From: Candidatus Methylomirabilis lanthanidiphila
Lineage (GTDB): Bacteria > Methylomirabilota > Methylomirabilia > Methylomirabilales > Methylomirabilaceae
NCBI GenBank assembly: GCA_902196205.1
Contig: CABIKM010000041.1
Coordinates: forward strand, 1 to 22,456
DNA: 22,456 bases
Direction of reading: 5' to 3'
Part shown: positions 7,208 through 14,395 of the stretch, piece after piece
Layout of the letters: each line of letters opens with the position of its first letter
How positions within the stretch are numbered: position 1 is the first letter of the stretch
Program-made: the position numbers and the translations under genes
The notes under the pieces: model-generated
Database searches by the model: none
The model's input: only the letters and a program-made list of their open reading frames with translations
What the model was told of the DNA's origin: nothing

Positions 7208-9637
7208 CTAGAAGGCCTCATCGCCGGCTGCCCAAGCTTCTCGCTCCTTCGCCTTCTCCTTATCGTAGATGGTCCATTCACCTTCCTCGACGACAGTAGC
7301 CTCACGGACCATTCGTCCTGCCCTTGACAGAATGAAATAGGCGAGCGGCAAGACGCCACCGAAGAGGAAGATCGCCCCACCGACGGTGCGCATCCACGTC
7401 AAGGTGATCCAGACATTATCCGTGACATGCGCCTGCGCTCGGGCAGCCCAGAGGCCTTGCTTGAAGACGGTCGCAACCTGGTACAGACCGACCGGGAACA
7501 GATCCAACATCATCATAAGCACCAAGCCGCTCTGCAGGGACCAGAACACCCCCTTAATCAGCTTCTCATTCCAAGCTGAGCGCTGGAACAGGTGCTGGCA
7601 CGCAAACAGCATACCGGCAATTGCGATGTTACCCTTGACGCCGAACATAGCCGCATGCGCATGGTTGCCGGTGAGGTAGGTGCCGTGCTCATAGTAGTTG
7701 ACGATGGGCAGGTTGATGAGCGAGCCGAAGACGCCCGCGCCGAAGATGTTCCAGAAGTTGACGGCCAGGATGAACGTCCAGACACCGTCCATCACGAAGC
7801 GCTGCTTGCCCTCGGCAATGTTTTCATAGGCCTTCACCCGCTCCGTCCGCATCTTCCAGGCATCCAGGGTAATCAAGAGCAACGGCAGCACCTGCATGGT
7901 GGAGAAGACGCTGCCCAGCGCGATGATCCCTGTTGGCTTGGCGATCCAGTAGAAGTTGTGGGAGATCCCGATCAGGGCGGTGACCAGGAACATCATGACG
8001 GCGAGGAAGATAACCCGCTCGGCCATGGCTCGGTTGACCAGACCCATCTGCACCAGCATGTAGCCCACGATACAGGTGGTGAAGACCTCGAAGGTCACCT
8101 CAACCCACATATGGATGTTCATCCACCGCCAGTAGTCCGCGATGGCGAAGTTCTGCGACGGGGTCATGAACATCCCGAAGAACAGGAACAGCACCATGAT
8201 GCCGCTGCCGTAGAACAGCCAAGCCGGCACCGACCAGAGGTTCTGGCTCGTGATCCACGGCTTCACGGCGCGGAAGATGATGAAGACCCACAGACAGAAC
8301 GAGGCCAGCATGAGGATATGCCAGAAGCGGCCGAGCTCCAGGAACTCCCAACCCTGGCTCCCGAACCAGTAGGCCATGTCGTCGCTGAAGTACCCGGTGT
8401 GGCCCAGATAGATGCCAAACAGCGCGCCGGCGCCCACGATCAGACACAACGTAAAGAGCAGGTTGATCAGGAAGCGCTGACCGTTGGGCACCTTGGAGAT
8501 CCTGGGCAGGAAGAAGAGGGTGTAGCCGACCCAGGCCATGAAGAACCAGTAGATCTGGACGATGGTATGCCAGCCTCTGGTAACGGTGAAGGGAATGGTG
8601 AATCCCAATACTGTGGTCGCGAGGGCGCTACCCGGTCCCCCACCGACGAAATCCTCTGCGCTCAGGATACCTGCCAGGACCTGCACCAGGAACAGGATCA
8701 CGGCAAACGCAAAGAACTTGTAGGTGGCACGCTGGGTCGGTCGCACATAGGCATCGCCCTTGTTTTCGAGGTCAACCGTGGTGAGCGACCAATCCCGCCC
8801 GTTGAACGGCTCGCCTGGCAGGGTTTTCATTTCACCGTACACATACAGGACCAGCATGGTGCCGCAAAACAGGACGAAGATCGAGATGAAGCTCCAGAGA
8901 TAGGTCTCGAACGTCGGAGTGTTACCGACCAACGGATCAGGCGGCCAGTTGTGGGTATAAGTATAGTCAAAACCCGGCCGATTTGCCCCCGAGACCCAGC
9001 CACCCCAGAAGAAATATCCTGCCAACGCCTTGAGGTCTTCAGGGTCGCTGATATGATTCTGGATTCGTCCCTTCATAAACGCTTCTTCATAGGTAGGATC
9101 CGTAAACGTCCGCGTGTAATGCGTGATTAACTCCTGGTACGCAAAGGCCTGCGCCGGATTGATTCGAATCAGGTTAGCCGCTTCGTCGTACCCGTTCTCG
9201 CGGATCTCTCGTCGTACCCTCACCGAGATCATGTCACGGTCGGCCTGAGTAACCGGACGATCTTTCGCGATCTCATTTTCGTAGAACTTGGTCATCGATA
9301 CATACGTATGGTGTAGGGCTTCTGCGGTGTAATCCGGCCCGCGTTCTCCTCCGTCGCCCCAGAACGAGCCATACGTCATCAGACCCTTCAGGTGGAATAC
9401 CTGCTTGCCACGCTGGATTTGCCACTCGGGAATCACCGTTTCTCCGGTAGATGACAATACATAATTAGTCAGTGGTGGAGCTGATGTATAGGTCCAGACA
9501 CCAAGCGCAACCAATCCGATAACACTAATACCGGTGACGATCGCAGCATGAAGCCACCAATATTTCTTTACCAACAACATTTGACCAAATGTTTTATGAC
9601 TCTTCGTGACCAATCCGCCCGAATGTGGACTCATCAT
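7208..9637 (-). CDS. nod: Quinol-NOR-like heme-copper oxidase with altered FeB and quinol sites; putative nitric oxide dismutase, copy 1 (809 aa)
   Basis: Start set at ATG 9635-9637 (CCGGAGGTACA-ATGATG). N-terminal TM helix, then a ~200-aa periplasmic domain without CxxCH, then the HCO core. Motifs: GWHTIVQIYWF, IHMWVEVTFEVF, GISHNFYWIAKP (His-Asn instead of His-His), STMQVLP, GNHAHAAMFG. Confidence 0.9.
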   Translation of the reverse strand: MMSPHSGGLVTKSHKTFGQMLLVKKYWWLHAAIVTGISVIGLVALGVWTYTSAPPLTNYVLSSTGETVIPEWQIQRGKQVFHLKGLMTYGSFWGDGGERGPDYTAEALHHTYVSMTKFYENEIAKDRPVTQADRDMISVRVRREIRENGYDEAANLIRINPAQAFAYQELITHYTRTFTDPTYEEAFMKGRIQNHISDPEDLKALAGYFFWGGWVSGANRPGFDYTYTHNWPPDPLVGNTPTFETYLWSFISIFVLFCGTMLVLYVYGEMKTLPGEPFNGRDWSLTTVDLENKGDAYVRPTQRATYKFFAFAVILFLVQVLAGILSAEDFVGGGPGSALATTVLGFTIPFTVTRGWHTIVQIYWFFMAWVGYTLFFLPRISKVPNGQRFLINLLFTLCLIVGAGALFGIYLGHTGYFSDDMAYWFGSQGWEFLELGRFWHILMLASFCLWVFIIFRAVKPWITSQNLWSVPAWLFYGSGIMVLFLFFGMFMTPSQNFAIADYWRWMNIHMWVEVTFEVFTTCIVGYMLVQMGLVNRAMAERVIFLAVMMFLVTALIGISHNFYWIAKPTGIIALGSVFSTMQVLPLLLITLDAWKMRTERVKAYENIAEGKQRFVMDGVWTFILAVNFWNIFGAGVFGSLINLPIVNYYEHGTYLTGNHAHAAMFGVKGNIAIAGMLFACQHLFQRSAWNEKLIKGVFWSLQSGLVLMMMLDLFPVGLYQVATVFKQGLWAARAQAHVTDNVWITLTWMRTVGGAIFLFGGVLPLAYFILSRAGRMVREATVVEEGEWTIYDKEKAKEREAWAAGDEAF

Positions 9638-9893
9638 TGTACCTCCGGTGGCCAAACCCATGTACCGGCCGGCCACACCTTGCTCACCTACAATCAACCC
9701 ACTTCACTCTGTAGCGCCAGCGGCTGCCTATCTATCGGGGGGGCGCGCACGTCACTGTCGGACAATAGCGCACGAAATCGACTACCTAAGCTTGACCGGG
9801 CAAGCAGTAGTGTGTCGATTGGTTGGCATTTGATCCATGGGATCGCGGTCATATTCAACTCCAAAGGAAAGTCTGGAAAGTTCATATACCTTT

Positions 9894-9922
9894 AACATAC
9901 GAGCTTCATCGGTACCTGCCAA
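9894..9922 (-). promoter_or_regulatory. Candidate sigma70-type promoter for nod-1 (TTGGCA-N17-TATGTT)
   Basis: The -35 hexamer is the reverse complement of 9917-9922 and the -10 hexamer of 9894-9899. The -35 starts exactly 35 nt downstream of the start of the conserved palindrome, the same spacing as upstream of nod-2. This is a pattern match only. Confidence 0.25.
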
Positions 9923-9944
9923 TCGCTTAACTCACCTAATTTGC

Positions 9945-9957
9945 GATGCAAATGCAC
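9945..9957 (-). promoter_or_regulatory. Conserved operator-like motif GTGCATTTGCATC upstream of nod-1
   Basis: Same 13-mer, with one central A/T difference, as 13164-13176; closely similar to 13238-13250 upstream of nod-2. Confidence 0.4.
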
Positions 9958-10363
9958 TAGGATTGACTACGGCGATCGTTTATCTGGGGCGGTGTAGCGC
10001 GGGAAAGGCAACTCGATCTGAGGCCTGGCCGAGCAGTTGCGGATGGCGGCTTACAATATGAGGGGTACCAAAAGGAATACCACACCAGACGGCAGTAGCT
10101 GCCGAGGGGCGACCCGCCAACAGATTCGGAGCCGCCTGCGGCTAGATCTTCAATACCTAACGGCGAGGAGGGAGCCTTGACGCGAGGAACTCGGTCCAAC
10201 GAAGAGAGGGGCCCTCATTTTTTGGGCCTCCCGTCTTTTAGGAACCACCGTGGTTTTTGAGTCTTAGTCAAACAGGCCCAAAATTCGACTCTGAACATTT
10301 GATGCAAACGCCGGAAATAAGGAGGTCAATACAAGGCGCGGACCGATCCCTTTAATTCGAAAT

Positions 10364-10405
10364 AAAAAAACACCCCCGGCACAACCGATACGTTGTGCGG
10401 GGGTG
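10364..10405 (-). terminator. Rho-independent terminator of nod-2
   Basis: On the - strand: CACCCCCGCACAAC-GTATCG-GTTGTGCCGGGGGTG (one bulged G) followed by TTTTTTTATT. It lies 42 nt after the stop at 10447. Confidence 0.8.
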
Positions 10406-10446
10406 TAGAGTCAGAACCGACGTACCTACCGAAGCAGGTAACGAGA

Positions 10447-12888
10447 CTAGAACGCCTCGTCAGAAGCGGCCCAAGCTTCCCGCTCCTTCGCCTTCTCTTT
10501 GTCGTAGATCGTCCACTCGCCCTCTTCAACCACGGCGGCCTCGCGGACCATCCGTCCAGCCCTGGACAGGATGAACCAGCACAGAGGCAGAACACCACCG
10601 AAGAGGAAGACCGCGCCGCCGATCGACCGCAGCCAGGTCAGCGTATGCCAAACCTCGTTCGTGACGAACGACTGCTGTCGGCCGTACCAGAAACCATACT
10701 GGAAGATGTGTGCCAGCTGGTACAGACCAACCGGGAACATATCCATGAGCATCATCATGACGATGCCGACCTGCAGGGACCAGAACACGCCCTTGATCAG
10801 CTTCTCATTCCAAGCTGAGCGCTGGAACAGGTGCTGGCACGCAAACAGCATACCGGCAATCGCGATGTTACCCTTAACGCCGAACATGGCACCATGGGCA
10901 TGGTTGTTCGTGAGGTAGGTGCCGTGCTCGTAGTAGTTGACGATCGGCAGGTTGATGAGCGAGCCCATCACGCCTGCGCCGAAGATGTTCCAGAAGTTAA
11001 CGGCCAGGATGAACGTCCAGACGCCGTCCATCACGAAGCGCTGCTTGCCCTCAGCGAGGTGCTCGTGGGCCTTGGTCCGCTCCGTCCGCATCTTCCAGGC
11101 ATCCAGGGTGATCAAGAGCAACGGCAGCACCTGCATGGTGGAGAAGACGCTGCCCAGCGCGATGATCCCTGTCGGCTTGGCGATCCAGTAGAAGTTATGG
11201 GAGATGCCGATCAAGGCGGTGACCAGGAACATCATGACGGCGAGGAAGATAACCCGCTCGGCCATGGCCCGGTTAACCAGACCCATCTGGACCAGCATGT
11301 ACCCGACGATACAGGTCGTGAAGACCTCGAAGGTGACCTCAACCCACATATGGATGTTCATCCACCGCCAGTAGTCGGAGATGGCGAAGTTCTGCGACGG
11401 GGTCATGAACATGCCGAAGAACAGGAACAGCACCATGATGCCGCTGCCGTAGAACAGCCAGGCCGGCACCGACCAGAGGTTCTGGCTGGTGATCCAGGGC
11501 CGAACGGCGCGGAAGATGATGTAGACCCACAGACAGAACGAGGCCAGCATGAGGATATGCCAGAACCGGCCGAGCTCCAGGAACTCCCAACCCTGGCTGC
11601 CGAACCAGTAGGCCATATCGTCGGTCAGCAGGCCCGTGTGGCCCATATAGATGCCGAACAGGGCGCCGGCGCCGACGAGGACACATAGGGCAAAGAGCAG
11701 GTTGATCAGGAACCGCTGCCCGTTAGGCACCTTCGAGATCCTGGGCAAGAAGAAGAGGGTGTAGCCGACCCAGGCCATGAAGAACCAGTAGATCTGGACG
11801 ATGGCATGATAGCTTCGTACGACGCTGAAGGGGATCACGATCCCCAATGCGCCCAGGATCGATTCACCAGGTCCGCCACCGACGAAATCTTCTGCGCCCA
11901 GGATACCGGCCAGTACCTGCACCAGGAACAGGATCACAGCAAACGCAAAGAACTTGTAGGTAGCCCGCTGAGTCGGTCGCACGTAGGCATCGCCCTTGTT
12001 TTCAAGGTCGACCGTAGTAAGCGACCAATCGCGCCCGTTGAACGGCTCGCCGGGCAAAGACTTCATTTCACCGTAGACGTACAGGACCAGCATGGTACCC
12101 GCAAACAGGACGAGGATTGACAGGAAGCTCCAGATATACGTGGCGTACGTCGGGAGGTTACCGGCATCAGGATCGTACGGCCAGTTATGGGTGTAGCTGT
12201 AGATCTCGCCCGGTCGATTTGCGCCGGCTACCCAGCCGCCCCAGAAGAAGTAGCCCGCCAACCCCTTGATGTCGTCCGGATTGCTGATGTAGCTCGCGAT
12301 CCTACCCTTCTGGAACGCCTCTTCATAGGTAGGATCAGTGAACATCTTAGTGTAATGGTCGATCAACTCGTGATAGGCAAACACCTGCGCGTCGTTAAGG
12401 CGGATCACGCCGGCCGCCGCGTCATACCCATTCTGATGGATCTCTCGCTTGACCTTACCCGCGATCCCGTCCTTCTCATCTTGGGTGGCGGGGCGTCCCT
12501 GCGTTTTCTCGATCTGCAACTCATAATACTTGCCCATGGAGACGAAGGTGCGGTGCAGGGCCTCGGCGGTGAAATCCGGGCCGCGCTCTGCGCCATCACC
12601 CCAGAAGGAGCCGTACAACATCAGGCCCTTCAGATGGAACACCTGCTTGCCCCGGTTCATCGAATACTCGGGGATGACGACCTCTCCGGAGGTCGCCGAC
12701 ACGAAATTCACCAGAGGAGGAACGCCAGAATAGGTCCAGACGCCAAGAGCAATCAATCCGATGGTGCTAATCGCAGTAACGATCAAAGCATGAAGCCACC
12801 AATATTTCTTGATCAACAGGGCCTGGGCAAACGTCCTCTCCTGCTTGCCCTTACTTACGGTTCCGCTTCCGCTGGGATTCGGACTCAT
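10447..12888 (-). CDS. nod: Quinol-NOR-like heme-copper oxidase with altered FeB and quinol sites; putative nitric oxide dismutase, copy 2 (813 aa)
   Basis: Start set at ATG 12886-12888 (GGGAGGTAACA-ATG). Same motif set as copy 1, including GISHNFYWIAKP and NNHAHGAMFG. Long stretches are identical to copy 1. Confidence 0.9.
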   Translation of the reverse strand: MSPNPSGSGTVSKGKQERTFAQALLIKKYWWLHALIVTAISTIGLIALGVWTYSGVPPLVNFVSATSGEVVIPEYSMNRGKQVFHLKGLMLYGSFWGDGAERGPDFTAEALHRTFVSMGKYYELQIEKTQGRPATQDEKDGIAGKVKREIHQNGYDAAAGVIRLNDAQVFAYHELIDHYTKMFTDPTYEEAFQKGRIASYISNPDDIKGLAGYFFWGGWVAGANRPGEIYSYTHNWPYDPDAGNLPTYATYIWSFLSILVLFAGTMLVLYVYGEMKSLPGEPFNGRDWSLTTVDLENKGDAYVRPTQRATYKFFAFAVILFLVQVLAGILGAEDFVGGGPGESILGALGIVIPFSVVRSYHAIVQIYWFFMAWVGYTLFFLPRISKVPNGQRFLINLLFALCVLVGAGALFGIYMGHTGLLTDDMAYWFGSQGWEFLELGRFWHILMLASFCLWVYIIFRAVRPWITSQNLWSVPAWLFYGSGIMVLFLFFGMFMTPSQNFAISDYWRWMNIHMWVEVTFEVFTTCIVGYMLVQMGLVNRAMAERVIFLAVMMFLVTALIGISHNFYWIAKPTGIIALGSVFSTMQVLPLLLITLDAWKMRTERTKAHEHLAEGKQRFVMDGVWTFILAVNFWNIFGAGVMGSLINLPIVNYYEHGTYLTNNHAHGAMFGVKGNIAIAGMLFACQHLFQRSAWNEKLIKGVFWSLQVGIVMMMLMDMFPVGLYQLAHIFQYGFWYGRQQSFVTNEVWHTLTWLRSIGGAVFLFGGVLPLCWFILSRAGRMVREAAVVEEGEWTIYDKEKAKEREAWAASDEAF

Positions 12889-13101
12889 TGTTACCTCCCG
12901 TGGCTCTCCCTCTTTTGAGGTGGCCACTCATGCATTGTTATTACGGTGCCGTCTTTGCTGTGTTAGCCCTAGCCGCCGGGGGTGCGCGCGCTTCCCGAGC
13001 GACGTGCAGGGGACGGGTCCGACGGCACATGCCTGGTCGACCAAGCGGAGACCCGTCACGCTGCTTATTGTTTCTTATCCCGAACTTCATGGGGAACGCC
13101 T

Positions 13102-13250
13102 CCTTGACGACTATACTGCGGTCCCCCGGACACCTTGTAAATCCTACGAACGAATCAATTCACGATGCATATGCACCATGGTATACTTCTACTACCCCCG
13201 ACGGGACTCGTAAATCCTGCGATTGACTCAATATGGTAATGCATATGCAC
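13102..13250 (-). repeat. Tandem ~74-bp direct duplication upstream of nod-2; each unit starts with the GTGCATATGCAT palindrome and carries AGGATTTAC(A/G)
   Basis: Unit 1 runs 13250->13177 and unit 2 runs 13176->13102 on the - strand. The first 12 nt are identical between units, as is a 9-nt AGGATTTAC block 35-36 nt downstream. The remainder has diverged. Confidence 0.6.
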
Positions 13251-13253
13251 TAG

Positions 13254-13445
13254 TCACGAACTCCCAGACCAGTATCGCGCATTAATCAAGGGTATGGCGT
13301 ATAAAACGAGGTTTATTCCGTTGGGCAGCAGGCCGCTGATTTGCTTGTCGGCCCGCGCTGTGGCGCTCACGAATGCTGTACTCCCTGGAACGAGATTATG
13401 ACTCACGAAGATGCTATTGATGGAATCTTGATAGATCGAGCCCAT
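13254..13445 (-). CDS. Possible 63-aa ORF coupled to the regulator through a TAATG stop/start overlap
   Basis: ATG 13443-13445 shares one nt with the regulator TAA (13445-13447). I see no motif and no independent support. Confidence 0.25.
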   Translation of the reverse strand: MGSIYQDSINSIFVSHNLVPGSTAFVSATARADKQISGLLPNGINLVLYAIPLINARYWSGSS

Positions 13446-14320
13446 TACGCTACCTTGGGGGGTTCTGTCGTCACACTCGGCGTCTGTCCGGTCTCTGTTC
13501 GAGTCGCAGGCTCCCGCCGCGCCATCTCGTTCACGTAGGCTACGGCCTCCAATCGTGAGTGAACCTTAAGCTTGCTGAAGATATTCTGAATGTGGTTTCT
13601 CACGGTGGTCTTACTGATAAAAAGCTGTTCAGCGATAGCTGCGGTCGTCGCACCAGTCCGCATCAGGGTAACGATCTGCAGTTCCCGCCGAGTGAGCTCA
13701 CCAACGGGAGAGACATTCTTCTCACTCATCGTGAGTTGCGTCTGAGCCAGTTGTTGCCGAACAAGCACCTCAAGTTGGTGTGCTGCTGTGACATCACGGA
13801 AAAGATGGACGACCGTCGGAGGCTGGTTGTCTTCGCTGGGAAGGGCCACACAGCTTACATCGATCCACAGCGGTTTGCCCGTCCTCGTCCGCGTAGCCAT
13901 CTCAAAATGCTGAATCAGGTCTCCACGGCTCAAAGTCATCTTGAGTGGACAGGGCCACTGACAGAGTTGATTGCCGTTGCTGTCGCGGCCATTGAAAAAC
14001 TCGCGGCACTGTTGTCCGACGACCTGCTGCGCAGACGCTTCCAGGATCTTTTCGGCAGCAGGATTGCAAAACAGGATTTCCCCGGTCGGCGCACTGACAA
14101 ATACACCATCGGCGGTCTCCGCGAAAAGTCTAAAAGCGGCTTCCCGTGGCTCCATAGATTGTACGTCCCCGGATTCGCCTCGCGGACTCTCTCTATTAAC
14201 CGCCGGTCGATCCTCACCCCTACGGCGAGACTTTGCCTCGCCGCTGGAACCATCGTTAGGTCGCCGGTCCGGCCGATGGATTCGTCCCGAATGTTTCGAT
14301 CCATTGCCTGGATGTACCAT
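13445..14320 (-). CDS. PAS-domain LuxR/GerE-type (HTH) transcriptional regulator with a Cys triad in the PAS domain
   Basis: PAS-like block FRLFAETADGVFVSAPTGEILFCNPAAEKILE. C-terminal LuxR HTH LTRRELQIVTLMRTGATTAAIAEQLFISKTTVRNHIQNIFSKLKV. Start is uncertain: ATG 14320 is chosen, ATG 14155 is also possible, and the ORF-track TTG 14434 would overlap the divergent promoter candidate. Confidence 0.75.
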   Translation of the reverse strand: MVHPGNGSKHSGRIHRPDRRPNDGSSGEAKSRRRGEDRPAVNRESPRGESGDVQSMEPREAAFRLFAETADGVFVSAPTGEILFCNPAAEKILEASAQQVVGQQCREFFNGRDSNGNQLCQWPCPLKMTLSRGDLIQHFEMATRTRTGKPLWIDVSCVALPSEDNQPPTVVHLFRDVTAAHQLEVLVRQQLAQTQLTMSEKNVSPVGELTRRELQIVTLMRTGATTAAIAEQLFISKTTVRNHIQNIFSKLKVHSRLEAVAYVNEMARREPATRTETGQTPSVTTEPPKVA

Positions 14321-14395
14321 GGTCTTACTATAACGAGTGTCGATGGAGCCTGTCAAGCTGAAAAGAGGTGTACACCCGCAGGCTGAAGAAAACCC

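Follow-up and report, generated by a model that had tools for sequence, protein, structure and literature searches.

A conserved palindromic box ahead of the nod genes of Candidatus Methylomirabilis lanthanidiphila and the neighbouring PAS-LuxR regulator as its candidate binder

NO dismutase is the enzyme proposed to supply Methylomirabilis with O2 that the cell itself forms from nitrite when conditions are anoxic, and the locus studied here raises the question of how its putative genes, nod, are controlled. The 22,456-nt stretch analysed, hereafter the window, is one whole contig of Candidatus Methylomirabilis lanthanidiphila, with two nod paralogues, a gene for a PAS-LuxR (GerE) regulator, and pmoBA and further genes typical of Methylomirabilis. 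An initial annotation, made from the sequence alone, had noticed a palindromic motif at a fixed distance from -35-like hexamers upstream of both nod genes, and named the product of the regulator gene as the obvious binder. Our literature search found no paper on a nod promoter or transcription start site (TSS) in Methylomirabilis; one preprint mentions LuxR-type neighbours of nod and calls the connection 'unclear'. Is the motif functional, is it specific to nod, and which protein may bind it?

Three copies of the motif are present on the minus strand, each with its hexamer at the claimed site: GTGCATTTGCATCG ahead of nod-1 (9957 to 9944), and the proximal GTGCATATGCATCG (13176 to 13163) and distal GTGCATATGCATTA (13250 to 13237) copies ahead of nod-2. 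From the start of the motif to the -35-like hexamer there are 35 nt for nod-1 (TTGGCA) and nod-2 proximal (TTTACA), and 36 nt for nod-2 distal (TTTACG). The distances to the ATG, given earlier as about 310 and 280 nt, bracket these figures when measured from the start and end of the motif, with 320 and 307 nt for nod-1 (ATG at 9637) and 288 and 275 nt for the proximal copy of nod-2 (ATG at 12888). The nod-2 core, TGCATATGCA, is indeed a perfect 10-bp palindrome, and the overall motif occupies a 14-bp frame, RRTGCAWWTGCATC. The nod-1 box is accompanied by 'box B', a conserved A(A/T)T(T/G)AG element reading AAATTRAG in nod-1 orthologue modules; box B and the right arm of the nod-1 box together form a second dyad, ATTTGC-ATC-GCAAAT. 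The coordinates are collected in Table 1.

Table 1. Features of the nod upstream regions, with positions in the window except for the last line, which names loci of other genomes.
Feature	Position	Strand	Basis or remark
nod-1, qNOR-like, putative NO dismutase	7208..9637	-	Pfam COX1 and NorB cytochrome-c-like domain
nod-1 -10-like TATGTT, 17-nt spacer	9894..9899	-	consensus scan; TAnnnT columns conserved in orthologue alignment
nod-1 -35-like TTGGCA	9917..9922	-	consensus scan; TTTACA/TTGGCA kept in orthologues
nod-1 'box B' AAATTAGG	9935..9942	-	AAATKRRG in orthologues and outgroup modules
nod-1 palindromic box, 14-bp frame AGTGCATTTGCATC	9945..9958	-	core TGCATTTGCA at 9947-9956
nod-2, qNOR-like paralogue, putative NO dismutase	10447..12888	-	domain annotation
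nod-2 proximal -10-like CAGTAT, 17-nt spacer	13113..13118	-	CGCArTAT conserved in relatives
nod-2 proximal -35-like TTTACA	13136..13141	-	GGATTTACA conserved
nod-2 proximal palindromic box GGTGCATATGCATC	13164..13177	-	motif match
nod-2 distal -10-like TAGAAG	13186..13191	-	TAAATA/TATAAA/TATATT in relatives
nod-2 distal -35-like TTTACG	13209..13214	-	conserved in module alignment
11-bp palindrome ATTGAGTCAAT	13222..13232	-	between nod-2 distal box and its -35
nod-2 distal palindromic box AGTGCATATGCATT	13238..13251	-	motif match
PAS-LuxR (GerE) regulator gene, candidate binder	13445..14320	-	Pfam PAS_9 and GerE
Second 'nod box' C[CG]GTCAWWTGAC[CG]G	L063, L064, L066-L069, L071-L074, L076, L086, L087, L094		upstream of nod

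Each copy of the motif heads a module of constant order, namely the motif, 22-23 nt, a TTTACA-like -35, 17 nt and a TAnnnT -10, and this module is duplicated in tandem upstream of nod-2. The -35 and -10 assignments are predictions from consensus and conservation. In a sigma-70 consensus scan, TTGGCA-17-TATGTT (9922 to 9894) is the sole sigma-70-like site in 9600-10450 and scores 9/12, above the threshold. Both nod-2 promoters fall below it, which marks their -10 elements CAGTAT and TAGAAG as weak, but their hexamer columns are nonetheless conserved across relatives. A sigma-54 reading of TTGGCA (TGGCA-N6/7-TTGC) was rejected, as by eye a -12 element is absent.

With the predicted -10 hexamer taken as -12 to -7, the dyad is centred at about -64.5 (nod-1 and nod-2 proximal) or -65.5 (nod-2 distal), in agreement with the earlier estimate of -65 to -70. 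Its end lies 45 nt (nod-1, nod-2 proximal) or 46 nt (nod-2 distal) before the -10, that is, 24 nt plus 21 or 22 nt. The dyad of the window would thus stand two helical turns (21 bp) above the class II position and face the same side of the helix, an offset that may explain why the spacing is conserved. For the distal nod-2 promoter, the TSS is predicted where the proximal box begins. We also considered whether nod-2 has a further, degenerate box in the class II position, where GAGTCAATCGCAGG matches the 14-mer at 9 of 14 positions; as the nod-1 modules match at only 4 of 14, it is not general and is kept as putative.

With regard to the leaders between these promoters and the nod genes, a search of 9400-13600 against Rfam at E<=1 gave no matches, and hence no known riboswitch or leader in this interval. 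Both leaders hold an upstream ORF (uORF) of 40-61 codons, at 12941-13090 and at about 9694-9852 (minus strand), with orthologues in loci L002-L023; the one in the nod-2 leader has AGGAGG ahead of it. R-A-P-P is invariant in 16 of the 17 uORFs found across 12 genomes (...REARAPP in nod-2), a GRPG motif is also present, and the peptide, whose N-terminus resembles MxxMxWIDKQ, is basic and devoid of a signal sequence. RAPP is the ribosome arrest peptide motif of ApdA/ApdP, and RAPP arrest peptides are so far known ahead of Sec/YidC genes and not ahead of a gene for a respiratory enzyme (PMC10951233, PMC7897499, PMC12992588). A conserved hairpin, GUGGCC-(CCUC...GAGG)-GGCCAC, occupies about 9645-9675 and 12897-12925 (minus strand), and in 19 of 20 leaders it ends 4 nt ahead of the nod Shine-Dalgarno. 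Its inner stem shows compensatory changes (CCUC/GAGG, CCCA/UGGG, CCUA/UAGG, CCUG/CAGG), as does its outer stem in G019 (GUGAU/GUCAC). This hairpin could have a stabilising role or control translation, perhaps in connection with the uORF.

The conservation of the motif was followed in 20 genomes of one GTDB genus, 13 of which have nod; the footprint set comprised 600 nt upstream of 20 nod genes, from which 29 modules were collected, and the counts below come from related genomes and are not independent. The nod-1 upstream regions of eight species are nearly unalignable save for one block, TCCTAGTGCATTTGCATCGCAAATTAGG, which is the most conserved of the region, with a mean information content (IC) of 1.56 bits vs 0.50 bits for the whole 600 nt. 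The motif, traced in 12 Methylomirabilis genomes, lies ahead of nod-1 in eight of the eight upstream regions long enough for alignment and, in two tandem copies, ahead of nod-2 in 9 of 11 aligned species. The proximal nod-2 box is eroded in G012, which has two distal-type units instead, at -442 and -300; both nod-2 boxes were found in G006, where the module listing has only the distal one cleanly, the lower-scoring one being incomplete. The nod-2 distal module represents the most conserved 54 nt upstream of nod-2 (IC 1.64 bits).

Within the 14-bp frame, nod-1 reads [AG]ATGCATTTGCAT[CT] across species (the box being RATGCATTTGCATY in six of the seven nod-1 modules listed), nod-2 distal AGTG[CT]ATATGCATC and nod-2 proximal AGTACATATGCATC. 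The promoter-proximal arm TGCATC is nearly invariant, and entirely so in the 10 nod-2 proximal modules; the distal (left) arm is variable, RRTRYA (GTGCA, GTACA, GTGTA, ATGCA). In nod-1 of G006, G012 and G019, GATGCATTTGCATC is the 14-bp dyad except for the central TT. The -35 (GGATTTACA), the 17-nt spacer and the -10 columns (TAnnnT or CArTAT) are all conserved in the genus, and the 11-bp palindrome is nearly invariant in 12 nod-2 distal modules, while box B is poor in those of nod-2 proximal type. A T-R-R triplet ahead of the box (TAG, TAA, TGA or TGG) was considered as the stop codon of a small upstream ORF, and appears coincidental because the triplet can also be TGG and the small ORFs lack conservation.

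It had been argued that the sequence between motif and hexamer has diverged, leaving only the motif and its spacing. This is true of the paralogues, in which 8 of 21 positions of the interval are identical, but not of the orthologues, among which the interval is strongly conserved, especially for nod-2. The interval therefore seems to be under constraint itself rather than a neutral spacer, and the whole region from -71 to -30 is conserved among orthologues, not the motif and spacing alone. The argument from retention to function holds: the footprint is that of a spacing-constrained cis-element, and the box is very probably a functional element of the nod promoters.

How often would such a motif arise by chance? 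In the window, three matches at <=2 mismatches were found vs 0.33 expected, a number reached by 1 of 100 shuffles. Across the genome (3.05 Mb, 90 contigs), the core TGCATATGCA is not enriched (2 seen vs 1.7 expected) and TGCAWWTGCA is at chance level (7 vs 6.8). The 10-bp core is therefore no regulon marker, since it is not over-represented genome-wide. By contrast, the 14-mer was seen 2 times vs 0.036 expected, and nod upstream regions hold both TGCATATGCA copies and three of the seven TGCAWWTGCA sites; three of the other four lie within long ORFs and one (C3:8172) overlaps short ORFs only. Random frequency, the outcome that would have spoken against the motif, thus applies to the core but neither to the 14-mer nor to its clustering. 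Judged from the sequence, the 14-mer, its clustering ahead of nod and its conservation are not a matter of chance.

A profile of the 29 modules, run with nhmmer against the 3.05-Mb genome, recovers the three nod sites only (E 1.8e-17, 3.9e-16 and 2.2e-8), the next match having an E of 0.89. With a relaxed pattern, the genus genomes yield slightly more sites than a reversed control; those elsewhere in this genome are devoid of the module, and most fall inside ORFs of at least 90 aa, a few being maybe intergenic. A role of the motif as marker of a wider NO/nitrite regulon thus finds no echo in the genome: as the profile matches nod alone, the module appears to be dedicated to nod.

The survey was extended to species-representative genomes scanned with a nod alignment, giving 60 loci (about 50 nod genes at 55-73% identity), of which 51 are from outside the genus, among them Acidobacteria, Delta- and Gammaproteobacteria, Binatia and Myxococcota. 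Three contigs (L041, L049, L099), in MAGs labelled Patescibacteria, Peptococcaceae and Methylovulum, carry Methylomirabilis nod/PAS-LuxR loci at 93-96% identity, and their labels are likely the result of mis-binning. A homologous module with the same order and spacings precedes nod in two acidobacterial loci (L045 and L098) and one deltaproteobacterial locus (L092), and is present in degenerate form in a Bdellovibrionota locus (L044). In these outgroup modules, the 22-23-nt interval contains AAATGAG and is followed by TTTACA, 17 nt and TAnnnT. The box of L045, L092 and L044 is GTTCATTTGCCTC, which is hardly palindromic and lies within a longer dyad, TCATTTGCCTCATGGAAATGA; the regulators keep the same recognition helix. 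In L098, two tandem modules occur at -246 and -114, 132 bp apart, the tandem duplication having arisen there independently.

Other loci show a palindrome in another position. The acidobacterial L047 carries a 20-bp palindrome, AATGATGCGTTTGCATCATT, with 5-bp arms in the 14-bp frame and 8-bp arms over the 20 bp; after its perfect dyad GATGCGTTTGCATC come 24 nt that start with ATTGACG, and next TAAGGT, so that, relative to this predicted -10, the dyad is centred near -43.5 and abuts a TTGACG -35. About 15 gamma/delta-type nod loci have a palindrome of the same 14-bp geometry, CSGTCAWWTGACSG (C[CG]G[TG]CAWWTGAC[CG]G), hereafter class G. It stands exactly 24 nt ahead of a -10-like hexamer in 13 of the 17 loci examined (TAGGAT three times, TAAAAT and TACGAT twice each, TACAAT, TAGGCT, TAGCCT, CAGAAT, GAGAAT and CAATAT), which, given these predicted hexamers, puts its centre at -43.5 in promoters without a -35. 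A literature search for both palindromes as bacterial operators returned eukaryotic POU 'MORE' elements and unrelated matches only.

With regard to the protein that binds the box, the PAS-LuxR gene lies directly upstream of nod-2 in 11 of 11 genus loci. Of the 20 genus genomes, the 13 with nod all have it, and the other seven, one of them 94% complete, all lack it. This co-occurrence is weak support, because neighbouring genes that go missing together from a draft MAG are not separate observations. Among the 51 non-genus loci, a box of one or the other class is present in 12 of 12 with a flanking GerE-type gene vs 7 of 39 without (Fisher 3e-7, phylogeny ignored). In L044, L047 and L092, a gene with Pfam PAS and GerE domains lies beside nod and is paired with TGCA-type boxes or modules; that of L047 is divergently oriented and has 44% identity to the regulator of the window. 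The class-G box often adjoins a GerE-HTH gene of about 170-226 aa, whose product combines GerE with an N-terminal domain of about 110 aa without Pfam match, one of which can be aligned to the PAS region with 25% identity. Each box class has a conserved recognition helix of its own: TVRNH(I/V)QN for the TGCA box (TVQNHIHS in L047) and, for the class-G (GTCA) box, T(I/V/L)R(T/S)H(V/I)E(R/H/K). The earlier choice of the PAS-LuxR protein is thereby strengthened: adjacency, strict co-occurrence and the pairing of PAS-GerE genes with a related motif in three other phyla make it the best candidate, and it is reasonably probable that it binds the box.

Several features of this regulator bear on how it may work. 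Cys105, Cys120, Cys124 and His138 are invariant in the PAS core of orthologues from Methylomirabilis, Bdellovibrionota, Deltaproteobacteria and Acidobacteria, and their retention in four phyla suggests a metal or Fe-S cofactor as sensor, the signal possibly being NO, O2 or redox state. The first 55 or so residues are disordered and basic, and are missing outside the genus. In the AF2 model, the domains reach a pLDDT of about 90, the overall value being 72.9 because the termini are disordered. The structural neighbours of the full-length model are VqmA (6ide, 7dwm, 6ugl) and EL222 (3p7n, 8a5r), both of which bind short palindromes as signal-activated dimers. No box was found upstream of the regulator gene that would point to autoregulation. 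Its promoter, a near-consensus TTGACA-18-TATAGT within 14321-14365 (minus strand), ends 6 nt before the ATG (14320), which suggests that the transcript is leaderless or nearly so and probably constitutive.

Taken together, the motif would serve as upstream operator in a conserved promoter module specific to nod, with two such modules in tandem at nod-2. A dimer of the adjacent PAS-LuxR regulator would be the most likely ligand of the 14-bp dyad and, placed at about -64.5 or -65.5, could activate RNA polymerase in a class-I-like manner from 21 bp above the -43.5 position of like palindromes in other nod promoters. We lean slightly towards this reading as a whole, a nod-specific operator of the PAS-LuxR protein acting class-I-like from about -64.5, and likewise consider activation from a class-I-like position, taken on its own, to be marginally favoured.

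A site that is real but serves another factor, either of CRP/FNR type or another GerE protein, with PAS-LuxR a mere neighbour, is unlikely. The half-sites GATGC-N4-GCATC do have the 5-4-5 geometry of FNR/DNR sites; no site of FNR/DNR/NnrR type (TTGAT-N4-ATCAA-like) is seen, the half-sites being GATGC and GCATC. The genome offers 11 GerE-HTH genes, the module of L045 has no PAS-GerE gene within about 6-11 kb, and seven non-genus loci carry a box without a LuxR-type gene in the flank, the flank covered for L098 being 3.5 kb upstream. Against these points stand a box of one or the other class in every GerE-flanked non-genus locus, the match between box class and recognition helix, the adjacency and strict co-occurrence of regulator and nod, and the restriction of the module to nod in this genome, which fits a dedicated local regulator. 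Quite unlikely in our estimate is an operator larger than the box, whether box and box B as one composite dyad near -59 or two dimer sites reaching the -35. It may nevertheless be the true form of the site, because the left arm is variable and the box of L045, L092 and L044 is hardly palindromic. Candidate dyads (ATTTGC-N3-5-GCAAAT and TCATTT-N9-AAATGA) are centred near -59, the nod-1 version being a perfect 6-3-6 dyad; in L092 and L045, the 21-bp TCATTTGCCTCATGGAAATGA is a near-perfect dyad although the TGCA arms are lost, and conservation spans the entire stretch from -71 to -36. However, it is the TGCATC arm that is the most invariant element in the genus, L047 has no box B and retains just the 14-bp dyad, in the class II position, and box B is poor in the nod-2 proximal modules.

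Repression is a very unlikely role for the box, whether as a roadblock or as an anti-activation site, for instance under NsrR-like control relieved by NO. The NsrR operator is an 11-1-11 inverted repeat, AAGATGCATTT-N-AAATGCATCTT, with the half-site AAnATGCATTT, which the nod-1 box resembles; moreover, the distal transcript is predicted to begin at the proximal nod-2 box, where a bound protein could block it. Yet only one half-site-like stretch is seen, with arms that are adjacent instead of 5 nt apart. The single Rrf2 gene of the genome (C30:46228-46620) adjoins cysK and is best read as CymR/IscR-like, scoring 43.6 bits against the NsrR model, whose cut-off is 182. NsrR itself was therefore rejected, for lack of an orthologue in the genome and because of the wrong geometry. 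In addition, the box lies upstream of the -35, off the core promoter, and the related boxes at -43.5 replace or abut the -35, an arrangement of activators; we infer activation rather than repression. Finally, a functionless relic of nod duplication or gene conversion would suit the tandem paralogy of nod-1 and nod-2 and the chance-level frequency of the 10-bp core. It is strongly disfavoured, and extremely unlikely in our view, given that the motif is the most conserved block in otherwise unalignable upstream DNA of 8-11 species, keeps its spacing and belongs to modules with homologues in other phyla.

If the box is an operator of the PAS-LuxR protein, one can ask whether nod, in at least four phyla, travels with a dedicated sensor-regulator and operator as a cassette and is switched on by a factor responsive to NO, O2 or redox. 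The regulator would be a PAS(Cys3-His)-LuxR protein, its place being taken in gamma/delta-type loci by a related GerE factor whose N-terminal domain is unassigned, and would bind at -43.5 or -64.5 to a 14-bp 'nod box' centred on CAWWTG. We propose this only tentatively, as it seems rather doubtful; should it be true, it would disclose a previously undescribed family of NO/O2-responsive transcription factors and provide a first entry point into how the biological formation of O2 from NO is regulated. A defined operator with a candidate regulator across phyla provides, in any case, a model of nod regulation that can be tested at the bench, and the box and module represent a sequence signature for spotting nod promoters in metagenomes. 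The Cys3-His PAS domain may be a new NO/O2 sensor.

Among known systems, the lux and tra boxes, operators of 18-20 bp centred at about -42.5 and recognised by activators of the LuxR-TraR type (GerE HTH), are an obvious reference. As with these, the nod dyad would serve a GerE-type HTH dimer encoded beside the target gene: a GerE-family regulator is found nearby and co-inherited with nod, and dyad symmetry fitting an HTH dimer is seen in TGCATATGCA, GATGCATTTGCATC and L047, the left arm being degenerate in many copies. The palindromes of L047 and of the gamma/delta-type loci, 24 nt before the -10 and centred near -43.5, come closest to this arrangement. In the window, by contrast, no dyad is centred near -42.5 over or in place of the -35; the dyad is shorter (10-14 bp) and stands 21 bp further upstream, before a recognisable -35, and the regulator has a PAS domain instead of an autoinducer-binding one. 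The half-site ATGCATTT of the NsrR operator resembles the nod-1 box, and both are tied to NO metabolism, but the nod box has no 11-1-11 repeat and is upstream of the -35.

With regard to the regulator, VqmA, the PAS-LuxR quorum-sensing receptor of Vibrio, shares the architecture of one PAS domain and a LuxR-type HTH without receiver domain, is dimeric and is a dedicated activator of an adjacent gene, as proposed here for the protein of the window. It differs in sequence (12-14% identity), in its G/C-rich palindrome in the vqmR promoter and in its ligand, DPO, whereas the PAS domain of the window protein has the invariant Cys3-His set. EL222, a light-activated LOV-HTH factor, likewise combines PAS (LOV) with GerE and binds a site of about 12 bp as a signal-induced dimer, but it is a flavin photoreceptor with another DNA consensus. 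CRP belongs to another protein family; it acts in class I and class II fashion from -61.5 and -41.5, and the two nod positions, about -64.5 and -43.5 as derived from predicted -10 hexamers only, are similarly spaced, with 21 bp between them and both on one helix face. In kind, the nod box and its regulator are an ordinary activator-operator pair.
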